Source: a phage. Taken from it: a stretch of DNA of 64,000 nucleotides. A program made the position numbers and the translations under genes. A model generated the notes under the pieces. It was given only the letters and a program-made list of their open reading frames with translations. It did no database searches and was not told where the DNA came from. How positions within the stretch are numbered: the stretch's first letter is position 1; each line of letters opens with the position of its first letter. Below are positions 33,458 through 60,101 of the stretch, piece by piece. Location of the stretch: the sequence record MZ956763.1. The stretch is one strand, 5' to 3'.

Positions 33458-34006
33458 ATGAAGAAATTGATTCTAGGATTGTGCTTAATGTTTACAGCAC
33501 ATTTATCTTATGCAGTTGACTGCCCAGAGCTATCAATTAGCCAAAAAGTTAACATGTTAAAAGCTTACCAGTATGGTGAGAACAACATGGGGAAAGGCTG
33601 GGGTATTACTCTAGCAGCTATAGCCTTACAAGAGTCAGAGTTAGGTCTGAAGGTAGAGAATAAAAAGACACATGATTATGGTATTTTCCAGAATCACTTG
33701 AAGACTGTTGTAAAGCGTAACAAAATTAGTCCTAATGTGGCTAAAAAGAAACTCTTAAAAGACTTTGACTATGCTGCGAAGGAAACCCACAAAGAGCTTG
33801 AGTTTTGGACTAAGGTGCATGGTCACCCGAAGTCAAAGAAGACTTTACAAAAAGTTTTAGCATCATATAATGCTGGGTATTCGTACAGAATCCCTAAAGC
33901 TAAGAAATATTCTCAAGATGTCTATAACAACATGAAAGTTATTGCTCAATGTGAATTTGCAACAAACATTTCTAAGGTAAACCATGAAAAAATTAAGAAA
34001 GTTTGA
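33458..34006 (+). CDS. secreted lytic transglycosylase-like protein
   Basis: signal peptide MKKLILGLCLMFTAHLSYA; SLT-like AIALQESELG...DYGIFQN. Confidence 0.55.
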   Translation: MKKLILGLCLMFTAHLSYAVDCPELSISQKVNMLKAYQYGENNMGKGWGITLAAIALQESELGLKVENKKTHDYGIFQNHLKTVVKRNKISPNVAKKKLLKDFDYAAKETHKELEFWTKVHGHPKSKKTLQKVLASYNAGYSYRIPKAKKYSQDVYNNMKVIAQCEFATNISKVNHEKIKKV

Positions 34007-37494: not shown

Positions 37495-37570
37495 GAAACT
37501 CTGTAAAATATTCACAATAGACTAAGCCTTTCTTATCTGGTAAATTTTTCAGGTAAGGAGGGCTTTTTTA

Positions 37571-37750
37571 TTTCAGAATTGTGCAGGTAGAGTTCTGTAG
37601 AGAAATCTGTAGAGAAAATTTTGAACTCCAAAGGGAAAATTCATTTTCAAGTTGTGCAGGTAATCTCCAAAGAGCTTTTTCATTTTCAAAACGTGCAGAG
37701 AAAAATCAGGTCGGGCAAGAAAAATCATTTTAGAATTGTGCAGGTAGGTG
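37571..37750 (+). repeat. four direct repeats, consensus about ATTTTCARAAtTGTGCAGGTA
   Basis: copies near 37571, 37643, 37681, 37725, plus duplicated CTGTAGAGAAA; upstream of small-gene array. Confidence 0.55.
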
Positions 37751-38003
37751 GGTGTAGGTGGGGATGTCGCCATTTCTCACAAGGCTACCACATCCGAAAA
37801 GAAAAGTCAACAGAAAAATTTGTAGCGGATTGAAAAATAATTCTTGATTTGTGTTCTGTTTTGTGGTATTCGCGCGCACCCGTTTCATTACATTTTTGCC
37901 AAAAATATTTTTAAAATTTTTCTTGACTATTCGAACGGGGTTATCTAGTATTTGCATCAACGGGGCGACAAGCCCGATAGCCTTAAACTAGGAGAATCTA
38001 AAA

Positions 38004-38210
38004 ATGCTATACGGTCGTGAATTGATGGTTACAACTAACGTTAACACAAATGTAAAACGTTTTTACATGCAAATTTGTGGCGTATGGTCTAGAATATCAG
38101 AGGCTGACTATTGCAACTATGTAGAAACGGCAATCAACTCTGATTGCTACCTTACAAGGAATACAAGAAAGCACATAAGACAGACAGCAGTTTACTACTA
38201 CGATATCTAA
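38004..38210 (+). CDS. small hypothetical protein (array gene 1)
   Basis: ORF preceded by conserved leader CCTTAAACTAGGAGAATCTAAAAATG. Confidence 0.5.
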   Translation: MLYGRELMVTTNVNTNVKRFYMQICGVWSRISEADYCNYVETAINSDCYLTRNTRKHIRQTAVYYYDI

Positions 38211-38298
38211 TAAAGTACTTTACAAGGGGCTTAAAAGTTGATATCTTAAGCCCCAGATAAAGAGCTTTATCAACAACCTTAAACTAGGAGATTCAAAA
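38211..38298 (+). repeat. class-1 intergenic leader repeat (representative copy)
   Basis: TAAAGTACTTTACAAGGGGCTTA..TAAGCCCCAGATAAAGAGCTTTA..CTAAACTAGGAGATTCAAAAATG; copies also at about 38680-38769, 39028-39115, 40096-40180, 40890-40976. Confidence 0.6.
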
Positions 38299-38679
38299 AT
38301 GGCATATCGTGCACCTAAATTCATCAATAAAGACAATTTCCGCAATGCACTGGAAAAATCACTTGATGAGAATTTTACAGGTCGGGTTATTGTTGTACAC
38401 GCATTCAATTTTAAGTATGATATTAACGGGAATAAAATCAACCATTACACGGCAACCATGTTAGATGGTGCGCTTTCAAGTGAAAAAGCCGTACTGAATG
38501 CACTTGCTGGACGTGGTAAAAACCTGATAAAATGCAATAAGAGACGTTATCAGGGCGGCGCATATGGTTACGATGATGCTGTTTATCATCTTGAGAATAT
38601 GGGCTATTCAGTGGAAAAAGCTGGAGCGCCGCAAATCATTGGTAGCGATGGTTATGTAACAATTTTCAAAATTAAATAA
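38299..38679 (+). CDS. small hypothetical protein (array gene 2)
   Basis: conserved leader and SD. Confidence 0.55.
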   Translation: MAYRAPKFINKDNFRNALEKSLDENFTGRVIVVHAFNFKYDINGNKINHYTATMLDGALSSEKAVLNALAGRGKNLIKCNKRRYQGGAYGYDDAVYHLENMGYSVEKAGAPQIIGSDGYVTIFKIK

Positions 38680-38769
38680 TAAAGTACTTTACAGGGGGCT
38701 TATAGTTCGATAAAGTAAGCCCCAGATAAAGAGCTTTACCACTAAATCCTAAATTGGAGAATCTGAAAA

Positions 38770-39027
38770 ATGGCTATTATCAAAAACGTTGTAGTTCCTG
38801 CAAAAACTCGTGATGACGCTCGCGTTATGGCTAAAAAGTTATGTGGGAGAGTGGTTGACAACGGGAAACAATCTGCTGTAAGATGGGGTGTAAAGGTTGA
38901 TAAACATTTAACCTTAAAACGTAGTTCAAACAACCTTTTTAAAGGTGTAAAATCACTCGGTAAAGTGAACGTTTTTACCAAAAAAGGTTATAAAATGCAC
39001 TTATCATTAACTGGCAATTTAATCTGA
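38770..39027 (+). CDS. small hypothetical protein (array gene 3)
   Basis: conserved leader and SD. Confidence 0.5.
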   Translation: MAIIKNVVVPAKTRDDARVMAKKLCGRVVDNGKQSAVRWGVKVDKHLTLKRSSNNLFKGVKSLGKVNVFTKKGYKMHLSLTGNLI

Positions 39028-39115
39028 TAAAGTACTTTACAAGGGGCTTAAAAGTTGATATCTTAAGCCCCAGATAAAGAGCTTTACCACTAAATCCTAA
39101 ACTGGAGATTCAAAA

Positions 39116-39412
39116 ATGAAATTATCAAATAAAGTTAGGGAAAACCTTAGCAAATTACTCAATAAAATTGATTTTATCGAGACATCAAGAAATAGTCATG
39201 ATGTTATGGAATGGTTACACGGCAAAATAAAAGGCCGTCGTGTGGTGATTTGCTTATGGAATAGTTGCAGGGAGTATAAAAAACCTGTATTACAAGTTAA
39301 TATATACGATAATACTTTTAAAAGCCCTGTAAAGTCTAAAAGCGATTTATTAGAATCTTATGAGATATCTGTAAATGGTAAAGTATCACGTAAAGAGGTA
39401 ACACCATGCTAA
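39116..39412 (+). CDS. small hypothetical protein (array gene 4)
   Basis: conserved leader and SD. Confidence 0.5.
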   Translation: MKLSNKVRENLSKLLNKIDFIETSRNSHDVMEWLHGKIKGRRVVICLWNSCREYKKPVLQVNIYDNTFKSPVKSKSDLLESYEISVNGKVSRKEVTPC

Positions 39413-39738
39413 TGACTGGCATCACCGCAATCATAGCCATTATAGCACTTTATAAGGCATATAAAGCCTATAATCTGGCAAGTAAGGCAATCACGCAGCA
39501 GGTTAGCAATAGCCTTGTAGAGAGCTTTCTAGGGCGCCTCAGTGATGAGCAAATAAAGCGGCTAGAGATGAGCTTCAGATATAAAGCGAAAACCTATCAG
39601 ATAAGTGACATCTTCAAAGATGATTTTCAGCTTGTCGATGATTATAATGCTCTGATAAATGCTTTAAATATCAGTGACTTAAAAGACTACTACGCTGTAA
39701 TTGTTCAAGAACTGAGCAAACGAAAACAAAATGCTTGA
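39406..39738 (+). CDS. small hypothetical membrane protein
   Basis: 110 aa with N-terminal TM-like segment; translationally coupled to previous gene, lacks the conserved leader. Confidence 0.45.
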   Translation: MLMTGITAIIAIIALYKAYKAYNLASKAITQQVSNSLVESFLGRLSDEQIKRLEMSFRYKAKTYQISDIFKDDFQLVDDYNALINALNISDLKDYYAVIVQELSKRKQNA

Positions 39739-39822
39739 CACTGGTTTTTAGATAGATTAAATTACACATCAACGGGGGGCGATAACCCCACTACATAAAG
39801 CCCTTAAACTAGGAGATTCAAA

Positions 39823-40095
39823 ATGTATACTACTAACAACGGTCGCACCTTAAACGTAACCCTACGCCACTATGTAAACGGGGTGATGCACTTCGAGGAT
39901 TTACGGGCTGAACAGCATATTTTGGATTGGCAACTTGCAGGACTCCAAAAAACTGCTACAGGATACGGGAAAAAGATTTCAACTAGTTGGAAAGTATACT
40001 ACGAGGGACGTTTGCGCAGAATTTATCAAGATGTGTACAGTAATAGCGCATCAAGTTACATCATGGTAAAAGGTAAAAAACTGCATTTAGTATAA
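39823..40095 (+). CDS. small hypothetical protein (array gene 5)
   Basis: promoter-hairpin-SD leader. Confidence 0.5.
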   Translation: MYTTNNGRTLNVTLRHYVNGVMHFEDLRAEQHILDWQLAGLQKTATGYGKKISTSWKVYYEGRLRRIYQDVYSNSASSYIMVKGKKLHLV

Positions 40096-40180
40096 AGTAC
40101 TTTACAAGGGGCTTATAGTTCGATAAAGTAAACCCCAGATAAAGAGCTTTACCACTAAATCCTAAATTGGAGATTCAAAA

Positions 40181-40585
40181 ATGGCTATTAATAACCGTGA
40201 ATTATCAATCTTAAAAGCACGTTTGACCGTCAACCGGATTAATGTTATTACATCATCAGCCCCAGACGAAACACTGCAAAACATTATTGGGAAGATTCAA
40301 AGTGTTATCTTAGACGTTGAAAGCGTAAAAAACTCACTGGCTGACGTTGCAGCAGGTATCACGCTAGACGGTGCACAATATGAAATGACCGACATGTTAG
40401 GCAAATCTAAGGTAATTAATAGGGAGTTAGATTTGAAAATGTTTCGTTTTGCTGTTAAAGTGTGGCTATCTGTCGAGTATGACGCAAATTTTGCAATCGC
40501 TGACTTTTTTGCAACATGGTTGCAACGTAATTTAACAAATCACGATTTTCGTGATATCTGCGATGTAATTTACGCAGAACTATAA
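40181..40585 (+). CDS. small hypothetical protein (array gene 6)
   Basis: conserved leader and SD. Confidence 0.55.
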   Translation: MAINNRELSILKARLTVNRINVITSSAPDETLQNIIGKIQSVILDVESVKNSLADVAAGITLDGAQYEMTDMLGKSKVINRELDLKMFRFAVKVWLSVEYDANFAIADFFATWLQRNLTNHDFRDICDVIYAEL

Positions 40586-40596
40586 AATTTCTCTTG

Positions 40597-40685
40597 ATTT
40601 TGTTTTTTAAAGCAAGTAAATTACTAATCAACGGGAGGTCATCACCTACCCACTACATAAAACCCTTAAACTAGGAGATTCTAAA
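40597..40685 (+). promoter_or_regulatory. class-2 leader of small-gene array: promoter, 5'UTR hairpin and SD (representative copy)
   Basis: TTGATT, 17 bp, TAAATT then TCAACGGGAGG...CCTACCC hairpin then CTTAAACTAGGAGATTCTAAAATG; similar copies end at about 39822, 41907, 42468, 43064, 43393. Confidence 0.5.
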
Positions 40686-40889
40686 ATGGCTATTATTAAC
40701 GGTTTAAACATTGAGACTACTCACATCAAAGATATCAAAGTCGGTGATATAGTCCTTTTTCACGGCGTAGAAAAAACCGTCACGGCGAAAGATATCAAGG
40801 AGGATTCATTCATGGGCCGAACCCTCTTCGGTGATTCCTATTGCTTAGGTTACCTTGCAGTTTTAAAAGTTGTCAAAAATAATCGTTAA
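40686..40889 (+). CDS. small hypothetical protein (array gene 7)
   Basis: promoter-hairpin-SD leader. Confidence 0.5.
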   Translation: MAIINGLNIETTHIKDIKVGDIVLFHGVEKTVTAKDIKEDSFMGRTLFGDSYCLGYLAVLKVVKNNR

Positions 40890-40976
40890 AGTACTTTACA
40901 AGGGGCTTATAGTTCGATAAAGTAAGCCCCAGATAAAGAGCTTTACCACTCAATCCTTAAACTAGGAGATTCAAAA

Positions 40977-41519
40977 ATGAAATGCTTTCACGGTACTACT
41001 CAAGAAAACTTCATCAACCTGATTAATAACGGTGATAAGCCATCAGGTGCATGGAATTGTTCGGATATGGACGGCAATTTTTACGTGTATCCAGAGAATA
41101 AAATCTATGGCGACGATGAGGAAGAGATAACATCTGAAGGCATCCAGCAAGCGTTAGGCAATGCCACTATCACGGCAGCTTTCCAGATGAAAACCCAAAA
41201 TATTGTTATCTTAGAACTTGATATCCCAGAGGATGACCTGAATGATGATTATTCTTGCGATAATATGTCTGGCGTAGCAAGTTTTACAGAATACTTCGAT
41301 TTGAATTGGATTAAAAAGGTTTACGTAACTGAGTTTAATGCGATGTTTTCGCCTTTTTGTCTTCCTTCATTGGATAACCCAAATTTAAACTATCTTGACG
41401 AGTCTCTGGAACTTCTTGCTAAAAGTGTTCAACAGTCGGACAGTATTCAGGTTTTTTGTGACATCATGGATACACTAACGGGAAACATCGCAGAAGAGGA
41501 TTTAAAGAGCTTTTTTTAA
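40977..41519 (+). CDS. hypothetical acidic protein (array gene 8)
   Basis: 180 aa; conserved leader. Confidence 0.55.
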   Translation: MKCFHGTTQENFINLINNGDKPSGAWNCSDMDGNFYVYPENKIYGDDEEEITSEGIQQALGNATITAAFQMKTQNIVILELDIPEDDLNDDYSCDNMSGVASFTEYFDLNWIKKVYVTEFNAMFSPFCLPSLDNPNLNYLDESLELLAKSVQQSDSIQVFCDIMDTLTGNIAEEDLKSFF

Positions 41520-41585
41520 AAACCTATGCAATCACCTTATAAACACTAATCAGCCCCTTACAGGGGCTTTTAAGGGGCTTAAATC

Positions 41586-41819
41586 ATGCTTATAACCGTT
41601 TATCTTATCCTTTCTATTTGTAATGGCCATTCATGTGATTTTAAAGGGCTTGAGGAGTTCACAGGAAGTAAAGAAAATGCTGTTCAGGTCTGTCAGATAG
41701 CAAGGCAAGACTACCCCGCCAGTGATGACATACAATGTTATTTTAAGACAGAAGATGAAGATGGTATCTATTTCGATAGTGTAGACGGTCAATATGAAAT
41801 AATTATAGAAAAAGACTAG
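41586..41819 (+). CDS. small hypothetical Cys-containing protein
   Basis: 77 aa ORF, no conserved leader. Confidence 0.4.
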   Translation: MLITVYLILSICNGHSCDFKGLEEFTGSKENAVQVCQIARQDYPASDDIQCYFKTEDEDGIYFDSVDGQYEIIIEKD

Positions 41820-41907
41820 ACAAGCCTGATAAAAATCTGTAAATTGTCAATCAACGGGAGGGATGACCTCCCAACTAAACAAAGTCCTTAAACTAGGAGA
41901 TTCAAAA

Positions 41908-42249
41908 ATGGCTTATGTAACCGTAATTACCAATAAAGAAGATTCATCTTGGTCAACTCAAGTAAGTGACAAGATGTCACCTATGCAGTGCCTAAAATAC
42001 TTTGAGCAATGGAACAAAGGTGAGGAAACAAGCCCCTTTCAAGTAATGCAGATTATTCATACAGACAACGAAGGGAATAAAACTGTTTTGAATAGTGAGT
42101 ACTATGCAACCAGATTAGAAACGAGAAGTAAAGCAATGAAGCTCTTACGTGAATCCGGTTATTCTCATATTGCCGCGCTAATCTGGGATGACCTCCTAAA
42201 AAGTCAGCGTATCAGCTATGTAAAACCTGAAAAAATATTCATCAGTTAA
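41908..42249 (+). CDS. small hypothetical protein (array gene 9)
   Basis: start at ATG directly after conserved leader; track ORF begins upstream inside leader. Confidence 0.5.
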   Translation: MAYVTVITNKEDSSWSTQVSDKMSPMQCLKYFEQWNKGEETSPFQVMQIIHTDNEGNKTVLNSEYYATRLETRSKAMKLLRESGYSHIAALIWDDLLKSQRISYVKPEKIFIS

Positions 42250-42468
42250 TCAATAACTTACAAAAAACTTTTAAAAAAATGTTGACAATCCCTCTTGACA
42301 TTGGTAACTTTGTTCGAGGGGGCTTATCTAAAAGGGATTCACTTAAAAGATTCTTTATAGATAAGCTCAAAAATTGCTTGCAATCAGCTATCAAAACAAG
42401 TAAATTACTAATCAACGGGAGGGATAACCTCCCCACTAAGTAAAGTCCTTAAACTAGGAGATTCAAAA

Positions 42469-42999
42469 ATGAACAAGTTCAAAGCTATCAACTTCATTCG
42501 TTCAAATAGTGTTATGTCTAAGCCTGTTAAAGACACCTATGAATTTCGTTGTAATGGTGTACACTTTGCAACCATCACTAAATCAGAAAACGGGGCTTAT
42601 TACATTCATCGTCGTAATGTTGCAACCGTTGTAGTCTCTCACTTTATGCAAGCCGTTGCGGAACTCCTCCCGATGTTTTTAGGGCTTTACTTAGATGAGT
42701 GTAAAAACGTTCACAATCACGTTAAAAACCTTTTAAACAGTTATAAAATGGCTTATGAACGTTCTATCAAGTCCTTAAACAAGTTCTATAAAGCCCCTGT
42801 AAATACTGTTTCAATGGCCTACGCTGCAAATGGTGAAAGAGTAAGCCTATCCGATGTGGAAGATATCGAGCTTTACGACCATCGTCCTAACGGTTACTCT
42901 CAGACCCTCGGTGAAGGTTTATCATTCAATATCAAGAACTTAGAAAAAACTTTAAAAGATATTGAAAAAGATATTGACGAGACAATCAAAAATCTGTAA
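42469..42999 (+). CDS. hypothetical protein (array gene 10)
   Basis: 176 aa; conserved leader. Confidence 0.55.
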   Translation: MNKFKAINFIRSNSVMSKPVKDTYEFRCNGVHFATITKSENGAYYIHRRNVATVVVSHFMQAVAELLPMFLGLYLDECKNVHNHVKNLLNSYKMAYERSIKSLNKFYKAPVNTVSMAYAANGERVSLSDVEDIELYDHRPNGYSQTLGEGLSFNIKNLEKTLKDIEKDIDETIKNL

Positions 43000-43064
43000 A
43001 TTACTAATCAACGGGAGGGATGACCTCCCTACTAAATAAAGTCCTTAAACTAGGAGTTATCAAG

Positions 43065-43328
43065 ATGGAAAACGTAGAATTAACCACACTTTTACAAATT
43101 GCAACCGACAAAGAAAACGTAGCATTAATTCACCGCATCGAAAGTGATTTGTTCAATGGTGAAATCATCAAAGAGTCTTACGAAGTTGTCGGATTCAAAG
43201 ATGGTAAAACGTTTGGATTCTTTGACCTCGAAAAAGGCAACGCTATTACAAAATATGATGTTNTATCTTGTGAGATTCTTACAAAATACAACGAAAAAAG
43301 GCTTGCAACATACGCNAACATGCAGTAA
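43065..43328 (+). CDS. small hypothetical protein (array gene 11)
   Basis: start after conserved leader; contains ambiguous bases (N) at 43263 and 43316. Confidence 0.45.
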   Translation: MENVELTTLLQIATDKENVALIHRIESDLFNGEIIKESYEVVGFKDGKTFGFFDLEKGNAITKYDVXSCEILTKYNEKRLATYXNMQ

Positions 43329-43393
43329 ATTACTAATCAACGGGAGGGATGACCTCCNTACTAAATAAAACCNTTAAACTAGGAGATTCAAAA

Positions 43394-43642
43394 ATGGCAA
43401 CTATCCGCGCAACCGTTAACNAATTNNGCTTCTACTCTCTGGATGTTAAATTTGACCTTGTGGGCACTGATAACGCCTTTGAAATGGTGAAAGGTCTTAT
43501 CAGTCAGACCATCAAAGACTATAATCCTTCTGATGAGTTCTGGAAAGAAACAAAACAGGAAGTTCTTAAAGATGGTTATTCTTTTCACTATTGGGGTGAA
43601 AAAATTGTCTCTCTGTACTACGATAAAGAAGGCACTAACTAA
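43394..43642 (+). CDS. small hypothetical protein (array gene 12)
   Basis: start after conserved leader; Ns at 43421 and 43426-43427; followed by terminator. Confidence 0.45.
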   Translation: MATIRATVNXXXFYSLDVKFDLVGTDNAFEMVKGLISQTIKDYNPSDEFWKETKQEVLKDGYSFHYWGEKIVSLYYDKEGTN

Positions 43643-43680
43643 ACGCCGCAGCGGGGCTAAATAGCCCCAGATACCTTTAC

Positions 43681-43707
43681 AGCCCCTCTGAATAGGGGCT
43701 TTTTTAC
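43681..43707 (+). terminator. intrinsic terminator closing small-gene array
   Basis: AGCCCCTCTGAATAGGGGCTTTTTT. Confidence 0.6.
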
Positions 43708-43710
43708 GTC

Positions 43711-45300
43711 TTATACAATCCTTATACAAACCCTTTCCCTTTCCTTCCTAGAATCTTACTAGACCTTAAAAGCAATAACTCTATAGTCTACTCTATAGCC
43801 TTTTATCAAATCAACTTAAATATAAGCCCATAACCCGAAAGGGAAGGGCAACCATTTAAACGCTCTATAAAGCCCTATAACAACCTTATTAACCCAACTT
43901 AAGGGATTGCATTATCTCACCCTTAAAAGCCCTTTATAAAGCTTCCTAGAGCCTTAAAAGAATCTTATAAGGGTGTAAGCTTTATTATCTCGTTAGCTAT
44001 CTTGTGAATAACTAAAAAGGGCTATGAGATAGATTCTATCGAATCCTATTGTTAGTGTCTTAAAAGTATGTTATAGGGGCTATGAAGTAGCTTAAAAGTT
44101 GCTTAAAAGTTACGTAAAAGAGGTTATAAAGTTACGTAAATGCTAGCCCCCTTAACATTTTCTTAACAATTTCTTAACAATCCCTACATAGTTATGCTTT
44201 TAAGGCACTTGTTAGCAACTTGTTAGCCCCTTGTTAAATCTCTGTTAAGACCACGTAAAAGCCTTGTAAGAGTCTTTGACATAGCCTTAAAAGCTCCTGT
44301 AAAGCCCTATAAAGAGCTATCCATACAGTTGAGGGGTAGATACTAGGAAGAGACTTAAAAGGGCTTATAAGGGGCTATAGAGAGCTTTTAAGAGATATGT
44401 TTAGAGATTCACTAAGAGGAAAGGGAATGATAAGAAAAGAGATAGTGACCATGTTAATAGCTTGTTAAAAAGATTAAACACTTGTTAGGAACTTGTTAAT
44501 TATCTTTACAAAATAACCCTTAAAAATTAACTTGTTAGCTCTTGTTAGTCATCTGTTAAGATTCTGTAAAGCCTATTCAGTACTTGTTAGAAAACTGTTA
44601 CAACCTTGTTAGTTCTGTTAAGAATATGTTAAGACCTCTGAAGAGATGTTAAAGAGATGTAGCAACTGTTAAGAGATTGTTAATGATATTTTAAAATTTT
44701 GCAAAGGGGGTGTTAAGGGGCTGTTAAGGGCTACCAAGCAGATATACATCCTAATCAGATATTTTTGAGTTCCTTCAAAGACCCTAAAAAATGACTTGAT
44801 AGTCCTATTTTATAAAAATTTTAAAATTCTGAATAATTACCTATACAGTCTTCTAAAAATACAGGCATAAACAGGCTTATAAGATACCTTGTTAGTACCG
44901 TGTTAGACCTTGTGAGATAAGGTCTGTAAAGATATTCCTGTTAAGTTTGCTAAAACAGTCTATATAGAGGCTTAGTAATACCTAGTGAACATCTATAGAG
45001 GGTATCATAGGTAACCTAGAGATTAAGAGGTGTATAGGAGCTTCTAAGAGGGTATAGAGAGGTGGTTAAGGTGATTGTATAGGTTGTTAAGAAGGCTTGT
45101 TAGGAGAGTGTTTAGAAGGCTTGTTAGAGGGCTAGTTAGAAGGGTTATACAGAGGGGCTATTAAGACCACTAGATAGTTACTAAGATACTATATAGTACT
45201 ATATAACTATATAGAGAGTAAGATTAAGAAGGTTGTTAAGAAGGATAGATATTTTATTCACATATGATGGTGACCCAGAGGTTGGGACAACCGATAAAAT
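43711..45300. repeat. ORF-free region dense in degenerate short motifs (CTTGTTAG, CTGTTAAG, CTTAAAAG, CTATAAAG)
   Basis: about 1.6 kb with no ORF of 60 aa or more in any frame; dozens of motif copies at irregular spacing; between convergent gene blocks. Confidence 0.6.
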
Positions 45301-45312
45301 TTTATAAAAATT

Positions 45313-45338
45313 AAAAAGCCCCCAATTAAGGAGGCTCT
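45313..45338 (-). terminator. intrinsic terminator closing minus-strand block
   Basis: minus strand reads AGAGCCTCCTTAATTGGGGGCTTTTT; same 23-nt core as terminator at 7365. Confidence 0.5.
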
Positions 45339-45347
45339 TAAGATATT

Positions 45348-55087: not shown

Positions 55088-55164
55088 CTCTGTTTAGCTC
55101 AGCTTGGTAGAGCGTTCCGTTTGGGGCGGTAAGGCCGGAGGTTCAAGTCCTCCAACAGAGACCA
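55088..55164 (+). tRNA. tRNA-Pro(TGG)
   Basis: manual fold: 7-bp acceptor, D-arm TAGCTCAGCTTGGTAGAGC, anticodon loop TTTGGGG, T-loop TTCAAGT, CCA encoded. Confidence 0.65.
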
Positions 55165-55171
55165 AATTAAT

Positions 55172-55249
55172 GTTCCAGTAGACAAAATGGTAAAGTCACC
55201 ACTCTTTCAAAGTGGATATCTGAGGGTTCAAATCCCTTCTGGAACGCCA
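55172..55249 (+). tRNA. tRNA-Glu(TTC)
   Basis: manual fold: acceptor GTTCCAG/CTGGAAC, anticodon stem CCACT/AGTGG, loop CTTTCAA. Confidence 0.6.
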
Positions 55250-55254
55250 GTTTT

Positions 55255-55330
55255 GACAGAAGACCAATTACAGCAAACTTAATCTTATTCATCTGAAGGT
55301 AAATCGGACAAAGAAGAGATTTGGTCTGGT
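55255..55330 (+). ncRNA. stem-loop element A of a 5-member family
   Basis: 5' CAGAAGACCAATTACAGCAA pairs with 3' TTGGTCTGG; between tRNA-Glu and tRNA-Met. Confidence 0.4.
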
Positions 55331-55340
55331 CATTAAGAAT

Positions 55341-55417
55341 TGCGGGTATAGAGAAAGGGCGTCTCACATGTCTCATTAGCATGGTATCGGCAGGTTCGAC
55401 TCCTGCACCCGCCTCCA
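55341..55417 (+). tRNA. tRNA-Met(CAT), possibly initiator (1-72 mismatch)
   Basis: anticodon stem CATGT/GCATG, loop CTCATTA; T-arm GCAGG-TTCGACT-CCTGC; position 1 unpaired. Confidence 0.5.
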
Positions 55418-55420
55418 AAT

Positions 55421-55488
55421 TTACAGAAGACCGTTTACAGCAATATTTATTAAATTTTTAGCGGAAAAATTGAAAGATACGGTCTGGT
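55421..55488 (+). ncRNA. stem-loop element B
   Basis: 5' CAGAAGACCGTTTACAGCAA, 3' ACGGTCTGG; internal hairpin AATTTTTAGCGGAAAAATT. Confidence 0.4.
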
Positions 55489-55500
55489 AATACTAAACAT

Positions 55501-55577
55501 GGTTAGGAAGCACATAAGGTATGTGCGGTCGCCTGTTAAGCGAATGGCACAGGGTTCGAATCCCTGACTAACCGCCA
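55501..55577 (+). tRNA. tRNA-Asn(GTT)
   Basis: D-stem GCAC/GTGC, anticodon loop CTGTTAA, T-loop TTCGAAT. Confidence 0.65.
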
Positions 55578-55646
55578 AATTTAGGAGAGAAGCGATTGCT
55601 CACCGATTTGTAAGGTGCAAGTCCTTAGCCTGAATAGAAATTAAAT

Positions 55647-55734
55647 GTGTCGTTATCCCGTAGATGGTAGCGGTGGGGACTGTAAATCCCTTGTCATTGA
55701 GACTCGGTAGGTTCGACTCCTACACGGCACACCA
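55647..55734 (+). tRNA. tRNA-Tyr(GTA), long variable arm
   Basis: 88 nt; anticodon stem GGGGA/TCCCT, loop CTGTAAA; acceptor GTGTCGT/ACGGCAC. Confidence 0.55.
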
Positions 55735-55739
55735 ATAAA

Positions 55740-55817
55740 GGCTATGTAGTTTAATAGGGTTAAAATACTCCCCTGTCACGGGAGATGATGTGAGTTCAAG
55801 TCTCATCGTAGCCGCCA
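55740..55817 (+). tRNA. tRNA-Asp(GTC)
   Basis: acceptor GGCTATG/CGTAGCC, anticodon stem CTCCC/GGGAG, loop CTGTCAC. Confidence 0.65.
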
Positions 55818-55902
55818 AATTATAATAAGTATTTCAAAATGATGTTTTGAGAGGGCTATTTAGCCCCTCCCTTAAAGAGTTCTTACGAGTATTCTTTAAA
55901 GG

Positions 55903-55979
55903 AGCAGAAGACCAAATACAGCAAGTTACTTAAAATTTCAAGCCAATTTAATTTTGAAAAATTTAAAACTTGGTCTGGC
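55903..55979 (+). ncRNA. stem-loop element C
   Basis: 5' CAGAAGACCAAATACAGCAA, 3' TTGGTCTGG. Confidence 0.4.
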
Positions 55980-55988
55980 TCAACAAAT

Positions 55989-56123
55989 TTACAGAAGACC
56001 GTTTACAGCAAAACTTAAACAATCTATTTCTCGGTAAAGAAAAGGAGAAGGTTCGATTCCTTCACTCGGCAGATGTCGAGTTGGTGTAATGGTAGCACTT
56101 AAGATGGTAAACAACGGTCTGGT
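55989..56123 (+). ncRNA. Y-RNA-like (YrlA-type) tRNA-mimic element D
   Basis: terminal stem AGACCGTT/AACGGTCT encloses T-arm-like GAAGG-TTCGATT-CCTTC, acceptor-like hairpin ACTCGGC-AGAT-GTCGAGT and D-arm-like GTG-TAATGGTAG-CAC, i.e. tRNA modules in permuted order with no anticodon arm. Confidence 0.45.
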
Positions 56124-56271
56124 AATTATCTTTGTAGATAAGTTATTAAGCTTACCTGTGAGTATGCGACCACAAAGGGTGAAAGGGTAAATTCTAGATT
56201 TAAACCCAAAAAGGCACATCGCTACAGACCTTAAGCAAGTCTGGGTAGCTTATCTACAAAGATAATTTAAT

Positions 56272-56347
56272 GGAAGTGTAGCAGAATGGTGATGCGGCAG
56301 ACTTTTAATCTGACAGGCGATGGGTTCGAATCCCTCCACTTCTACCA
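56272..56347 (+). tRNA. tRNA-Lys(TTT)
   Basis: anticodon loop CTTTTAA; acceptor GGAAGTG/CACTTCT; weak T-stem. Confidence 0.55.
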
Positions 56348-56351
56348 AAAT

Positions 56352-56428
56352 GGTTCAGTCGCAGATAAGGTAATGCAAGGGTTTCATAAGCCCTATGAAT
56401 GTGGGTTCGATTCCCATCTGAACCTCCA
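56352..56428 (+). tRNA. tRNA-Met or Ile2 (CAT)
   Basis: acceptor GGTTCAG/CTGAACC; anticodon stem AGGGT/GCCCT, loop TTCATAA. Confidence 0.55.
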
Positions 56429-56430
56429 AT

Positions 56431-56505
56431 TGTGGGTTAGCATAAATGGTAATGCAAACGGCTGATAACCGTTAGAAGAGGGTTCGATACCCTCACCTAC
56501 AACCA
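56431..56505 (+). tRNA. tRNA-Ile(GAT)
   Basis: anticodon stem AACGG/CCGTT, loop CTGATAA; T-arm GAGGG-TTCGATA-CCCTC. Confidence 0.6.
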
Positions 56506-56520
56506 ATTTCAATAGAGTTG

Positions 56521-56549
56521 TTGACATTGAGATGTGACTACTTTATAGT
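56521..56549 (+). promoter_or_regulatory. sigma70-like promoter inside tRNA cluster
   Basis: TTGACA, 17 bp, TATAGT. Confidence 0.55.
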
Positions 56550-56842
56550 AACTAAAATACTTCACAATATGTATAATTCAAACACCAATACATGAGCGTT
56601 AGACGTAACACAATGTGGGGAAATTTGTTGTACATATTCTGAATAGTTTTCGTTGCGTAGCGTCTATTTTGCAAATTTAAAATAAATGCAAACGACAATG
56701 TTTTTCTGGCAGTAGCTTGATAGGCTAAACACCAGTGAGGTCTTCCAATCCCTCATCAAAGAATTTGGCGTACTCGCCCACGGTATGATTAATAAGGTGG
56801 GCATCTTTAAGGGCTTTCTAAGAGAGTCTTTAAAGATAATTA

Positions 56843-56924
56843 CGGGGCGTATCTCAGCGGTCTTCTAAACCGCCGTTAACCGAGTAAGTGGAGTATGCGG
56901 GTTCGAGTCCTGCCGCCTCGACCA
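56843..56924 (+). tRNA. atypical tRNA-like gene, possibly tRNA-Arg(TCT)
   Basis: good acceptor (CGGGGCG/CGCCTCG), T-arm and a perfect hairpin GCGGT-CTTCTAA-ACCGC, but no canonical D-arm and a 23-nt region before the T-arm. Confidence 0.3.
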
Positions 56925-57067
56925 ATTTAGTTAGCAGATTACTTAGACGACCTAAGCGGGTCTTCCTGTAGGGAGGTGGTCTGTATCTCATGTTTTCCAG
57001 AACATGTAAATAATCTGAGAAGGGGCTTTACAGTGTTGAGATAATACGGTAAGCTTCGAATTATAGT

Positions 57068-57150
57068 GTGGGACGATGTTAAGACTCTAAGGCATGAGCA
57101 ACGGCCTCCAAAACCGTTTCAAAGGGGTTCAACTCCTCCGTCCCATGCCA
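57068..57150 (+). tRNA. atypical tRNA-like gene, possibly tRNA-Trp(CCA)
   Basis: acceptor GTGGGAC/GTCCCAT, T-loop TTCAACT, anticodon-like loop CTCCAAA on stem ACGG/CCGT; D region about 7-8 nt too long. Confidence 0.3.
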
Positions 57151-57163
57151 AAGTCTTATTAGG

Positions 57164-57251
57164 GGTAGGTAGCGGCTAATGGCAGCCAAACAGTCTTGAA
57201 AACTGTTGCCACTGTAGAGATACGGTGAGGGTTCGACTCCTTTACTTACCG
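57164..57251 (+). tRNA. tRNA-Ser(TGA), long variable arm
   Basis: anticodon stem ACAGT/ACTGT, loop CTTGAAA; D-loop TAATGGCA; CCA not encoded. Confidence 0.55.
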
Positions 57252-57407
57252 CCTAATAAGATTTAAAGCCAAGCTTCATTCGGATGTCGCTTTGGTATCC
57301 CGCGTGTATTGTCGTACACACTGATAAAACACCTAGTAGGTGTCACGGAGAAGAGATAATATCAAGCTCTCCAAAGGTTCTAGTCACCGGATTAAACAAG
57401 ACTATGC

Positions 57408-57429
57408 AAAGACCTTTTTAGGTCTTTTT
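57408..57429 (+). terminator. intrinsic terminator inside tRNA cluster
   Basis: AAGACCTTTTTAGGTCTTTTT. Confidence 0.5.
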
Positions 57430-57508
57430 AGAGGGCTTCTAAGGTTATTACAGCTTGTTGTGGAACCTTGTTGCTTAGGTTCTTAGAAGTTCTCTAAAAA
57501 GATTTAAT

Positions 57509-57586
57509 GGGAGATTGACGGTAATTGGTAAACCTACCATCCTTAGAAGTTGGTGTTTGAGGGTTCGAATCCCTTGTCTCCTACCA
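57509..57586 (+). tRNA. tRNA-Leu(TAG), short variable loop
   Basis: anticodon loop CTTAGAA; A73 discriminator; T-arm GAGGG-TTCGAAT-CCCTT. Confidence 0.5.
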
Positions 57587-57593
57587 AATTAAT

Positions 57594-57669
57594 GCAGGTG
57601 TAGCAAAATGGTTATGCGGCTGACTCTTAATCAGTAAGACGATGGGTTCAATTCCCTCCACCTGTACCA
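57594..57669 (+). tRNA. tRNA-Lys(CTT)
   Basis: same scaffold as tRNA-Lys(TTT); anticodon loop CTCTTAA. Confidence 0.55.
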
Positions 57670-57675
57670 GACATT

Positions 57676-57751
57676 GGGGTCATAGTTTATATGGTTAAAA
57701 TTCGAGTTTTGCAAACTTGGGAACTGAGTTCAATTCTCAGTGACTCCACCA
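57676..57751 (+). tRNA. tRNA-Ala(TGC)
   Basis: anticodon loop TTTGCAA; T-arm CTGAG-TTCAATT-CTCAG. Confidence 0.6.
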
Positions 57752-57757
57752 ATTAGT

Positions 57758-57832
57758 GCATCCATAGTTTAAACGGGAAAATTACAGTCTTCCAAACTGA
57801 GGTTGAGGGTTCGATTCCCTCTGGATGCTCCA
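57758..57832 (+). tRNA. tRNA-Gly(TCC)
   Basis: perfect acceptor GCATCCA/TGGATGC; anticodon loop CTTCCAA. Confidence 0.6.
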
Positions 57833-57839
57833 AATTAAT

Positions 57840-57915
57840 GCTCCTATCGTATAATAGGCTATTACGGTTGCCTTGTAAGCAACTTATCAGGGTTCGAATC
57901 CTTGTGGGAGCACCA
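57840..57915 (+). tRNA. tRNA-Thr(TGT)
   Basis: anticodon stem GTTGC/GCAAC, loop CTTGTAA. Confidence 0.65.
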
Positions 57916-57916
57916 A

Positions 57917-58006
57917 TTCAGAGGTCAAGTGAAAGACCGCTGGTGTCAACTGAAGACCGTAACAAATTCCACGGAGTTGAGTTAGCGGCACAACTTCAGA
58001 CCTCTT
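57917..58006 (+). ncRNA. stem-loop element E (related to A-D)
   Basis: outer stem AGAGGTC/GACCTCT; contains GAAGACCGTAACAAA resembling the family 5' motif. Confidence 0.3.
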
Positions 58007-58010
58007 TCAC

Positions 58011-58085
58011 ACTCGCTTAGTTTATATGGTAAAACACCACCCTTACAAGATGAAGAAAAAGGTTCAAGTCCTTTAGTGAGTACCA
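58011..58085 (+). tRNA. tRNA-Val(TAC)
   Basis: acceptor ACTCGCT/AGTGAGT, D-stem GTTT/AAAC, T-arm AAAGG-TTCAAGT-CCTTT, anticodon loop CTTACAA on a weak stem. Confidence 0.45.
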
Positions 58086-58086
58086 T

Positions 58087-58164
58087 GTTCCAGTATCCCA
58101 ATTGGCAGAGGATGCAAGCTCAAACCTTGTATTAGTGACGGTTCGAATCCGTCTTGGAACACCA
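58087..58164 (+). tRNA. tRNA-Leu(CAA), short variable loop
   Basis: Leu-like D-loop CAATTGGCAGA; anticodon loop CTCAAAC; A73. Confidence 0.5.
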
Positions 58165-58183
58165 ATTTTAAGAGGCTATTTAG

Positions 58184-58741
58184 ATGAGATATTTGAAGTA
58201 TGCTTCATGGATTTTCCTAGCTTTACTAGAGCCATTTGCAGCAACCCTATCAGTCATCTTAGCACCTTTCGTAGTTCCATTCTACAGTGAGAAGAAAGGA
58301 CACCTACCTTTTGGATTCAGATGGATGGAGACCTATGACAACCCAATTGATGGTGATGAAGGTCACGTTAAAAGATGGGCTAAGATTAGAAAGATTGGTA
58401 AGCTGGGTGTCTACATGCAGAGAGTTGGATGGCTCTGGAGAAACAAAGCTTATAACTTCTCTTACCATGTATTAGGAAGAGATGTAAAAGATGTTACTAA
58501 GTGGAAAGGTAATATCAACGTAAGTTCTGACCCTGAAGATAATCAGACAGGTTATCTCCTAATGTGGAACAACAATGCTTGGGGATTATTCGCTTTTATT
58601 CCGTCAATTAAAATCTTTGGTAAACAGTTTTACTGGAGAATTTATGTTGGATGGAAACTAAAAAGTGTTGTCCCAGAAGAAAGAGCATTCTCAAGGGAAA
58701 GAGTTATGTTGGCATTCTTTATTCATCCACTGAGAAAGTAA
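58184..58741 (+). CDS. hypothetical membrane protein embedded in tRNA cluster
   Basis: 185 aa ORF starting just after a tRNA; N-terminal hydrophobic segment. Confidence 0.5.
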   Translation: MRYLKYASWIFLALLEPFAATLSVILAPFVVPFYSEKKGHLPFGFRWMETYDNPIDGDEGHVKRWAKIRKIGKLGVYMQRVGWLWRNKAYNFSYHVLGRDVKDVTKWKGNINVSSDPEDNQTGYLLMWNNNAWGLFAFIPSIKIFGKQFYWRIYVGWKLKSVVPEERAFSRERVMLAFFIHPLRK

Positions 58742-58749
58742 AGATTTAA

Positions 58750-58825
58750 AGGGGATTAGTTTACAAGGTTAAAACCTCGGTCTTTGAAATCGAAGAAGTT
58801 GGTTCAATTCCAACATCCCCAGCCA
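58750..58825 (+). tRNA. tRNA-Gln(TTG)
   Basis: D-stem GTTT/AAAC; anticodon loop CTTTGAA; T-arm GTTGG-TTCAATT-CCAAC. Confidence 0.55.
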
Positions 58826-58827
58826 AT

Positions 58828-58906
58828 GCTCCATTACTCCAATTGGCAGAGAGGCCAGACTTAAAATCTGTGTTATGTATCGGTTCGAATCCGATATGGA
58901 GTACCA
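58828..58906 (+). tRNA. tRNA-Leu(TAA), short variable loop
   Basis: D-arm CTC-CAATTGGCAGA-GAG; anticodon loop CTTAAAA; A73. Confidence 0.5.
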
Positions 58907-58911
58907 ATTTT

Positions 58912-58987
58912 AGCGGTATAGCATAATTGGCAATGCAACAGTCTCTGAAGCTGTCCTATTAAGGTTCAAATCCTTATACCGCTGCCA
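58912..58987 (+). tRNA. tRNA-Gln(CTG)
   Basis: perfect acceptor AGCGGTA/TACCGCT; anticodon loop CTCTGAA. Confidence 0.6.
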
Positions 58988-59018
58988 CTTCTAAGGGTTC
59001 TTACGAGAGTCCTTAAAT

Positions 59019-59094
59019 GTGGCCTTATCATAAATGGTAATGACCCATGCTGTGAACATGGTCTATACGGGTTCAAATCCCGTAGGTCACCCCA
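59019..59094 (+). tRNA. tRNA-His(GTG)
   Basis: anticodon stem CCATG/CATGG, loop CTGTGAA; C73 discriminator. Confidence 0.65.
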
Positions 59095-59099
59095 ATTTA

Positions 59100-59177
59100 T
59101 AGTCCAAGTAGCTTATATGGTTAAAGCGCGTGTCTGAAAAACATGAGAAGAGGGTTCAAATCCCACTGGACTACCAA
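59100..59177 (+). tRNA. tRNA-Phe(GAA)
   Basis: perfect acceptor TAGTCCA/TGGACTA; anticodon stem CGTGT/ACATG, loop CTGAAAA; 3' end reads CAA. Confidence 0.5.
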
Positions 59178-59192
59178 TTTCAAAGGTGCTTA

Positions 59193-59927
59193 ATGAAAGA
59201 GATGACAGAACAAGGTAAGGAGATTTTTAATCTCTTAAAAACCGGTAAAGGGTTTTCTAACCCACTTATTACTGGTGCAGCAGTTCTCGGTGGAACCGTA
59301 GCTGCCTCTACATCACTTGTAAGCTCTATTAGCTCTGTAACAGACCCTACAATGAATGAGAAACTTGTTGCTGCTGGACTTACAACAGTCCTTCTAAACA
59401 GCTTTACAACAAGCCTGACAAGCACTACAGCAACTACTAAGACCCTAACAGACTATGGTCAAAAGTCTATTGATGAGTTTTCATCACGTATGCAGGTAGC
59501 AAAGGGATACTCCAATGTTATGGGTGCAGCAGGAGAACAAGTTGGTTGTACACCGTTCAGTGGTATTATGGGTGTTGCTACAGAATATGGTCAAAAAGCT
59601 ATTGATACGATTAACAGTACACTAGAGAGTGTTAACGATGTATTAAGTGACTTACAAGACGCTATTGACAAGGGTCTTGATACTGTTTCTGATTTAGCTA
59701 ACCAAGCTGTCAGTAAGATTAATGAAGGTATCTCAAAGATTACAGCTTATGCAGATGAAGTTGTGCAGATGATTGAAGAAGAAGCTGCCCTTATTGCAGA
59801 GTACCTTAAAACGAATATCAATGGGTTCTTAGCAGGTATCTTACCAGACTGGTTTGATGATGCTTGTAAAACTGGTGTGATTGACACTATTGCAACACCA
59901 GAAATGAAGAACGCATTACAGAAATAA
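59193..59927 (+). CDS. hypothetical Ser/Thr-rich protein
   Basis: start set at ATG after tRNA-Phe (MKEMTEQ); track ORF start 59130 would overlap the tRNA. Confidence 0.5.
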   Translation: MKEMTEQGKEIFNLLKTGKGFSNPLITGAAVLGGTVAASTSLVSSISSVTDPTMNEKLVAAGLTTVLLNSFTTSLTSTTATTKTLTDYGQKSIDEFSSRMQVAKGYSNVMGAAGEQVGCTPFSGIMGVATEYGQKAIDTINSTLESVNDVLSDLQDAIDKGLDTVSDLANQAVSKINEGISKITAYADEVVQMIEEEAALIAEYLKTNINGFLAGILPDWFDDACKTGVIDTIATPEMKNALQK

Positions 59928-59928
59928 T

Positions 59929-60021
59929 GGAAGATTAACCCTAAAAGGTAAGGGAGCAGTTTGCTAAACTGCCAGTAGCTGAGAAATCGGTGTACCAGTT
60001 CAAGTCTGGTATCTTCCTCCA
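59929..60021 (+). tRNA. tRNA-Ser(GCT), long variable arm
   Basis: 93 nt; anticodon stem GCAGT/ACTGC, loop TTGCTAA; T-arm ACCAG-TTCAAGT-CTGGT. Confidence 0.6.
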
Positions 60022-60025
60022 ATTT

Positions 60026-60101
60026 GAATCCGTGACAGAAATGGCTATGTGCCTGTCTGCAAAACAGGTTTATAAGGGTTCGAGTCCCTTCGGATTCTCC
60101 A
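60026..60101 (+). tRNA. tRNA-Cys(GCA)
   Basis: anticodon stem CCTGT/ACAGG, loop CTGCAAA; U73 discriminator. Confidence 0.65.

Follow-up and report, generated by a model that had tools for sequence, protein, structure and literature searches.

Repeated early-gene cassettes in a Felixounavirus genome carry a stem-loop that varies in sequence and keeps its pairing

In this study, we analyzed a G/C-rich hairpin that recurs in the leaders of small genes in a 64,000-nt stretch of phage DNA from sequence record MZ956763.1 (one strand, 5' to 3'; this whole stretch is referred to as the window). The window was identified as Felixounavirus: positions 39400-43800 match about 90 Felix O1-like myophages of Escherichia, Salmonella, Shigella and Citrobacter at 88-92% identity over the full length, with 252 matching records in all. 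The hairpins lie in a 5.8-kb block (about 37.9-43.7 kb) that contains 14 small open reading frames (ORFs) on the + strand, has a terminator with a stem and a T-run at either side, and holds 12 promoter/stem-loop/ribosome-binding-site (RBS) cassettes, seven of one type (class 2, the main subject here) and five of a sibling type (class 1). No Pfam match was found for any of the 14 cluster proteins. In Felix O1, reverse transcription PCR showed a peak at 5 min post-infection for the homologous ORFs 16, 20, 21 and 22 and at 25 min for 17, 19 and 23. The Felix O1 genome paper reported both repeats merely as direct repeats and described the promoters and the temporal control of this region as unknown.

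The heptamer TCAACGG occurs eight times in the window against 3.4 expected, and seven of these occurrences lie in the class-2 leaders (Table 1). All seven leaders have the same order: a TTGACA-like -35 element, a spacer of exactly 17 nt, a -10 element TAAATT (TAGTAT in cassette 1), 10 nt ending in ATCAAC, and the hairpin, which is followed on its 3' side by ACTAAATAAAGTCC and then CTTAAACTAGGAGATTCAAAAATG, i.e., an A-rich spacer, a Shine-Dalgarno (SD) sequence and ATG. The stems in the window consist of a G-rich and a C-rich arm and have 4-7 bp, and the upstream genes' stop codons overlap the -35 or the -10 element in cassettes 2, 4, 6 and 7. RNAfold placed the hairpin at the identical position in every window copy, with z-scores of -1.1 to -2.9 for the whole leader and -3.7 for the hairpin alone; single copies are thus only modestly unusual, and the strength of the observation lies in its recurrence.

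The original prediction, which had been made from the window, described such hairpins between positions 39739 and 43393. The four that it quoted are present as given (GGGGGGCGATAACCCC at 39774-39789, GGGAGGTCATCACCTACCC at 40633-40651, GGGAGGGATGACCTCCC at 41856-41872 and GGGAGGGATAACCTCCCC from 42417), and GGGAGGGATGACCTCCC recurs at 43013-43029 and 43342-43358. All six copies covered by that range are real, and a seventh lies outside it (37963-37975). It had also been proposed that the stem differs between copies while pairing is kept. Within the window this is only partly covariation: four of the seven copies share the stem GGGAGG/CCTCCC, which leaves the evidence thin, and the three others (GGGG/CCCC, GGGC/GCCC and the bulged GGGAGGT/ACCT-A-CCC) are shorter or bulged versions, in which pair 4 changes from A-U to G-C or C-G.

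Across relatives the same claim proved solid. Instances were collected by a pattern scan of IMG/VR, by blastn with one leader, and from nine annotated early regions of Felixounavirus, Mooglevirus and Suspvirus. The blastn search matched 241 phage records, all of them named as Escherichia, Salmonella, Shigella or Citrobacter phages or as Felixounavirus except for a Staphylococcus phage SA1 record, and a tblastn search with the neighbouring macro-domain protein, aimed at more distant Ounavirinae, returned mainly T4-like phages. The resulting class-2 set comprises 160 instances from the window and loci L001-L059 in three Ounavirinae genera (Felixounavirus, Mooglevirus and Suspvirus), whose cassette regions are about 70-80% identical. 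In nearly all of the 160 instances, folding gave one hairpin, beginning immediately 3' of ATCAAC. They include 26 stem types, 36 loop sequences of 3-9 nt, and 59 distinct hairpin cores. The stems have 4-8 bp, with GGG at the start and CCC at the end; GGGGAGGG/CCTTCCCC is the commonest, and GGGAGG/CCTCCC, GGGGC/GCCCC, GGGA/TCCC, GGGC/GCCC and GGGAGGC/GCCTCCC also occur. The loops are not conserved, and it is the pairing rather than the sequence that is selected.

Plain MAFFT alignments of the hairpins (A1 and A2) put the stems out of register, and we therefore built by hand an N-padded structural alignment with constant artificial flanks (A3). A3 holds the 59 distinct cores fitted to each sequence's own fold, so its 98.9% pairing arises by construction and is not evidence. 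In the covariation check on the aligned leaders, 47 cells were doubly changed, against 11.8 +/- 2.7 in shuffled alignments (none of 500 shuffles reached this number). Both sides changed in six of the eight populated pairs, and the covariation score was 0.261, compared with 0.104 after shuffling and at most 0.094 when the partners were slid. A3 also contains 25 G.U cells versus two A.C mismatches, and the GGGGAGGG/CCTTCCCC variant folds at -13.7 kcal/mol in the sense and -10.3 kcal/mol in the antisense orientation, i.e., the sense strand is favored by 3.4 kcal/mol. The G.U excess and the sense-strand stability together indicate that pairing is selected on the + strand, whether in RNA or in single-stranded DNA of the same polarity, and not as a duplex palindrome.

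Analysis of 117 unique upstream sequences showed a -35 element with T99 T89 G98, a 17-nt spacer, a -10 element with T100 A100 A87 A85 t T100, and an upstream A-tract. The hairpin starts at the 11th nucleotide after the -10 element, with C at the 7th and A at the 8th. Escherichia coli RNA polymerase starts 7-8 nt after the -10 element, at a purine preceded by a pyrimidine. By these rules the mRNA should begin with AAC-GGG, and the most likely start for the host sigma70 RNA polymerase is the A of TC-A-AC, the 8th nucleotide after the -10 element. The conservation of ATCAAC is partly imposed by the retrieval pattern; the motif is not absolutely fixed, as variants ATCAGAC, ATCAACA and ATCAACT occur. 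Our literature search found no transcriptome or start-site study of any Felix O1-like phage.

Further examination of the cluster revealed that the class-2 hairpin belongs to a larger arrangement, which had not been part of the original prediction: the hairpin is a module within a promoter/stem-loop/RBS cassette that has been duplicated, borders ORFan genes and marks the breakpoints of indels. In the class-1 cassettes, an 8-bp stem-loop GGGGCTTA...TAAGCCCC spans the promoter spacer and the -10 element. Its 3' arm is the GC-rich stretch between the -10 element and the predicted start, so that this hairpin would be expected in read-through RNA only. A third type, found in Mooglevirus, has the hairpin within the promoter spacer (TTGACAaGGGGTGTAAAAGCCCCTacTATTTA). 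Compared with Felix O1, the window shows three indels, and both ends of each lie inside cassettes; the homology that a cassette offers is about 80-115 nt long.

The closest known counterparts of these cassettes are the promoter/stem-loop cassettes called PeSLs (promoter-early stem-loops) in the T4-type phages phi1, RB49, PST and nt-1 (Arbiol et al. 2010, PMC2839356; Comeau et al. 2014, PMC4122927). A PeSL consists of a sigma70-like early promoter preceded by an AT-rich region, a stem-loop of polyG/polyC with G-T pairs in variable position, and an SD sequence with ATG; PeSLs flank the ORFans of hyperplastic regions and mediate modular shuffling. The Ounavirinae cassettes resemble them in the upstream stop codon within an AT-rich stretch, the sigma70-like -35 and -10 elements (recognized by sequence only), the G/C stem-loop with G-T (G.U) pairs, and the SD sequence with ATG, as well as in their many repeats, the ORFans flanked in a plastic region, the indel breakpoints inside cassettes, and the variable position of the stem-loop (three types here). 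They differ in belonging to another subfamily, with no sequence homology seen; in addition, the class-2 stem-loop lies after the predicted start and would thus be part of its own mRNA, at the 5' end, and it has no T-run on its 3' side, which makes a terminator role doubtful. The class-2 hairpin is not a new kind of RNA. Our literature search found no paper on this hairpin and none that uses the PeSL concept for Ounavirinae, in which such cassettes are so far undescribed. Given the PeSL-like architecture, part of the similarity among what had been regarded as paralogous leaders stems from cassette duplication and recombination.

With regard to function, we favor a composite reading, to which we assign a probability of roughly 0.5, in which the hairpin provides a structural element near the 5' end of its own mRNA and may also be an intercistronic barrier, within a PeSL-like cassette. 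The stem-loop is a module of the early-gene expression cassette that Ounavirinae phages carry in repeated copies, composed of an A-tract, -35 TTGAca, 17 nt, -10 TAAAtT, ACnnATCAAC, the G-rich/C-rich stem-loop, an unstructured A-rich spacer, SD and ATG, and it would lie at about +4 to +16/+24 of each mRNA made from a class-2 promoter. As a 5'-proximal structure that acts independently of its sequence, it could limit the 5'-end-dependent decay of short, strongly expressed early mRNAs by RppH and RNase E. In read-through transcripts it would stand just 3' of the preceding ORF as a possible exonuclease barrier or attenuator, and the ORFan genes are gained, lost and swapped between the cassettes, as in the T4-type PeSLs.

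A role in the own transcript is suggested by the first promoter of the cluster, which is preceded by a strong terminator and a non-coding stretch of about 360 nt and still keeps the hairpin. All 22 genomes examined retain it there, and the stems are of at least eight kinds (e.g., GGGC/GCCC, GGGA/TCCC, GGGGC/GCCCC and GGGGAGGG/CCTTCCCC). The proposed stabilizing role is drawn by analogy with known 5' stem-loops. The leader of phage T7 gene 10, GGGAGACCACAACGGUUUCCC, is a 5' stabilizing stem-loop, and the class-2 leaders are similar to it in layout and length (about 55 nt). The stabilizing stem-loops of the ompA and papA 5' untranslated regions are a further case (Emory, Bouvet and Belasco 1992; Bouvet and Belasco 1992; Bricker and Belasco 1999; as cited in PMC3997798). 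The class-2 leaders share with all three a short G/C hairpin at the 5' end (in class 2 the predicted one), an unstructured A/U-rich spacer, a strong SD sequence, and a dependence on structure over sequence, which appears here in the evolutionary sense: pairing is kept through 26 stem types and 36 loops. The ompA- and T7-type hairpins differ in lying 0-2 nt from the 5' end, against about three predicted unpaired nucleotides in class 2, whose transcripts would be made by the host RNA polymerase.

Several observations weigh against this interpretation. With the predicted +1, three unpaired 5' nucleotides (AAC) remain in 74 of 87 distinct leaders, four or five in 11 and two in two, and RppH and RNase E require at least two unpaired 5' nucleotides and prefer three or more (PMC8833179); protection would thus be partial at best. 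The hairpins of the sibling cassettes (class 1 and the Mooglevirus spacer type) lie upstream of the predicted start, and if all hairpins share one function, it is not that of a 5' cap but concerns upstream transcripts or DNA. Some copies are weak (4 bp, -3.6 to -7 kcal/mol). Moreover, the instances are related and exchanged by recombination, and A3 was built from their own folds, so that the covariation statistics overstate the number of independent events; given this kinship and recombination, independent compensatory events must be far fewer than the cell counts imply.

The original prediction had argued for a functional RNA structure and offered three roles, namely stability element, processing site and regulator target. 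The first part stands insofar as the compensatory changes, the compensatory arm lengths and the 25:2 ratio of G.U to A.C speak for selection on the transcribed sense strand. The three roles cannot be separated in silico; stability fits best, though imperfectly, since about three unpaired 5' nucleotides would remain. Processing in the sense of RNase III is unlikely because the stems have just 4-8 bp, in contrast to the interrupted double helix of about 20 bp of T7 early sites, and a regulator target is weakened by the diversity of loops and stems.

Among the alternatives, it is possible, if doubtful, that the hairpin is a PeSL-type attenuator or 3' barrier that acts on transcripts of the upstream cassette, by termination or attenuation or by blocking 3'-5' exonucleases, and so insulates the ORFs. 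The sibling hairpins located 5' of their own starts point to such a read-through role, which is the view of the PeSL authors, and in phi1/RB49 a PeSL stem-loop placed between promoter and lacZ lowered expression as much as the rrnB T1 terminator. Each intergenic cassette has one G/C hairpin whatever its place (after the -10 element in class 2, across it in class 1, in the spacer in Mooglevirus), and the upstream stop codons are just 14-40 nt 5' of the hairpin. However, no run of T/U follows the class-2 hairpin (ACTAAATAAAG or AACAATCC) and none of the seven appears in the terminator scan, whereas canonical terminators are present at both ends of the cluster; and the first promoter, which has no upstream gene and follows a strong terminator, nevertheless keeps the hairpin through compensatory changes. 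An intrinsic (Rho-independent) terminator was rejected on the same grounds, as the hairpin is followed by ACUAAAUAAAG or AACAAUCC with no U-run and is listed in none of the seven cases.

It is unlikely that ATCAAC and the hairpin form a regulator site by which a phage early/middle or host RNA-binding protein (an N-like protein on a boxB-like loop, or CsrA on GGA) would switch the early class. The ATCAAC-GGG junction is highly conserved (partly imposed by the retrieval pattern), loops such as GATGA, GATAA, GACAA, GAAA and GAGA resemble GNRA or boxB, and the mechanism of the early transcription shut-off is left unexplained in the Felix O1 genome paper. These features are set against 36 loops of 3-9 nt, 26 stem types and the three ATCAAC variants. 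A CsrA-type GGA at the stem-loop junction was found in only 47 of the 87 distinct leaders and was dropped. Like the nut boxB sites of lambdoid phages, the class-2 hairpins have a short G/C stem and an A-rich, GNRA-like loop (GACAA, GATAA, GAAA) near an early promoter; unlike boxB, they vary in loop sequence and size, occur once per gene, and are accompanied by neither boxA nor an N-like protein. A boxB/nut antitermination site was discarded because the loops vary freely. No recognizable domain was found in the early proteins, and a search of the window against Rfam gave only tRNAs at the gathering score and nothing relevant at E<=1 within 37800-43800.

A related proposal, in which the ATCAAC-GGG junction and the hairpin form a dedicated recognition element, would make them either the RNA target of a phage shut-off or processing factor for early mRNA, or a single-stranded DNA target that mobilizes ORFan cassettes between Ounavirinae genomes by PeSL-like site-specific mini-circles; we consider this a long shot. 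A lead to a RegB-like nuclease was rejected, as the "endoribonuclease" annotation in phage mistaenkt belongs to a neighbouring gene; the best-guess counterpart in the window, a 182-aa ORF at 33458-34006, gave only a sub-threshold SLT (lysozyme-like) match. An anti-SD switch, in which the CCUCC of the 3' arm would pair with the SD sequence once the 5' arm is gone, was also rejected: the leader folded without the 5' arm leaves the SD sequence free, and many stems have no CCUCC.

It also seems improbable that the hairpin has no function of its own and that a G-run and a C-run merely hitch-hike with the duplicated cassette, drifting by slippage and complementary by chance and descent. Most variants are indeed length variants of the G-run and C-run of one ancestor, very weak copies exist (GGC/GCC in Felix O1), and in a related promoter type 5' of a 46-aa gene the hairpin is slight or absent. 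However, the covariation of the arms goes beyond column composition, stems such as GGGGC/GCCCC, GGGA/TCCC and GGGAGGC/GCCTCCC are not plain run-length variants, and pairing is kept in about 160 instances from three genera whose cassette regions have diverged to the identity given above. Finally, a DNA-level element, be it a recombination hotspot or protein target for cassette exchange or mini-circles, or the operator of a dimeric repressor, is very unlikely: indel breakpoints do lie inside cassettes, and the PeSL authors speculated that GGGG...CCCC stems are recombination targets and mapped one crossover within a loop, but the 25:2 ratio of G.T to A.C gives an imperfect duplex palindrome that pairs well on one strand only, the variable arm length and spacing are ill-suited to a dimeric DNA-binding protein, and the flanking homology is enough for recombination without a hairpin.

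Table 1. Cassettes, terminators and indels of the early gene cluster (positions in the window)
Feature	Position	Strand	-35	-10	TCAACGG	Hairpin	ATG	Remarks
Terminator, canonical	37524..37565	+						stem + T-run; closes preceding operon, ~360 nt 5' of cassette 1; t13 in Felix O1 paper
Class-2 cassette 1	37923..38006	+	TTGACT 37923-37928	TAGTAT 37946-37951	37957-37963	GGGC-GACAA-GCCC 37963-37975	38004	first promoter of early cluster; SD between hairpin and ATG
Class-2 cassette 2	39735..39825	+	TTGACA 39735-39740	TAAATT 39758-39763	39769	GGGG-GGCGATAA-CCCC 39774-39789	39823	-35 overlaps upstream gene's stop codon
Class-2 cassette 3	40594..40688	+	TTGATT 40594-40599	TAAATT 40617-40622	40628	GGGAGGT-CATC-ACCT(A)CCC 40633-40651	40686	single bulged A
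Class-2 cassette 4	41817..41910	+	TAGACA 41817-41822	TAAATT 41840-41845	41851	GGGAGG-GATGA-CCTCCC 41856-41872	41908	-35 includes upstream stop codon; predicted +1 A 41853
Class-2 cassette 5	42378..42471	+	TTGCAA 42378-42383	TAAATT 42401-42406	42412	GGGAGG-GATAA-CCTCCC 42417-42433	42469	
Class-2 cassette 6	42974..43067	+	TTGACG 42974-42979	TAAATT 42997-43002	43008	GGGAGG-GATGA-CCTCCC 43013-43029	43065	TAA of -10 is upstream gene's stop
Class-2 cassette 7	43303..43396	+	TTGCAA 43303-43308	TAAATT 43326-43331	43337	GGGAGG-GATGA-CCTCCN 43342-43358	43394	TAA of -10 is upstream stop; one N in sequence
Class-1 cassettes (five)	38188-38303, 38657-38772, 39005-39120, 40070-40185, 40864-40979	+	TTTACA	TAAAGT				TTTACA-N17-TAAAGT; RBS block common with class 2
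Terminator, canonical	43681..43700	+						AGCCCCTCTGAATAGGGGCT then TTTTTT; end of early cluster; from terminator scan
Indel vs Felix O1	38302-39034							two ORFs replaced by one; class 1 to class 1
Indel vs Felix O1	40692-41849							three ORFs; class 2 to class 2
Indel vs Felix O1	43057-43324							one ORF; class 2 to class 2

Some further features of the leaders were observed. At 41885-41898, and in the same block of every leader, a mini hairpin UCCU-UAAACU-AGGA would weakly sequester the SD sequence; in Mooglevirus and Suspvirus it reads UCC-UAAACU-GGA, with one pair lost on both sides and the loop kept. The same block had been noted in phage Mordin as a 26-bp "SAS-like" repeat; the Mordin genome announcement (PMC4611695) compared the RBS repeat of this phage group to the start-associated sequences (SAS) of mycobacteriophages. 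The SAS and extended SAS of cluster K mycobacteriophages form a conserved repeat around the RBS of some non-structural genes, about half of which lie behind an imperfect inverted repeat whose spacer varies, and their function is given as unknown (Pope et al. 2011, PMC3203893). The Ounavirinae cassettes likewise combine a conserved repeat around the RBS with an inverted repeat upstream, but host and phage lineage are unrelated, the SAS inverted repeats are 17 bp long and conserved in sequence, and no promoter is associated with SAS. Four small IMG/VR contigs (L017, L020, L025 and L034) have GTGCTC-AACG-GAGCAC, then an A-rich leader and the same TTAAACTAGGAG RBS block; they appear unrelated to Ounavirinae and were retrieved solely because TCAACGG is present.

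In several copies the hairpin loop contains an ATG (GGGAGGGATGACC; 41863, 43020 and 43349, and position 4621 of L051, which is Felix O1 ORF19) that is in frame with the downstream gene and was chosen as start both by mechanical ORF calling and in the Felix O1 ORF19 annotation. The annotation has probably placed the start 45 nt too far upstream. As a genuine start the loop ATG was rejected: it lies 1-2 nt after GGAGG and beside the stem, and many copies have ATAA or ACAA instead; it is in frame only because the spacing is conserved. Directly 5' of cassette 5, an inverted repeat GCTTATCTA...27 nt...TAGATAAGC occupies 42322-42368, and Mordin and other Mooglevirus/Suspvirus phages have a similar one (TTATCTA...TAGATAA) at the corresponding site, followed by a gene for a 46-aa membrane protein.

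Outside the cluster, the non-coding stretch of about 360 nt between the terminator at 37524-37565 and the first early promoter has three copies of a ATTTYAGAATTGTGCAGGTAG-like motif (37570-37760). Beyond the terminator of the + strand cluster, about 1.6 kb (43730-45340) up to the first - strand gene contains no ORF of at least 40 aa and is dense in short repeats at a spacing of about 10-11 nt in both orientations (ACTTGTTAG / TGTTAAG / CTTAACA, GGGCTTATAAGGGGCT). The GenBank records of several relatives begin or end within this region, which may be a replication origin or a genome-end region. A + strand cluster of 23 tRNA genes is present at 55088-60098, as expected in Felix O1-like phages.

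Felix O1 is a classic diagnostic and biocontrol phage, but the promoters of this region could not be identified in its genome paper. The promoter/stem-loop/RBS cassettes, about a dozen near-identical copies, provide a ready map of the early transcription units, and their recognition corrects start codons set in the hairpin loop. Cassette-to-cassette recombination explains why otherwise similar phages differ in the ORFan content of this region. The finding reveals no new mechanism; it carries the PeSL idea beyond T4-type phages into a further subfamily of myoviruses, and the cassette could serve as a compact, strong expression module.

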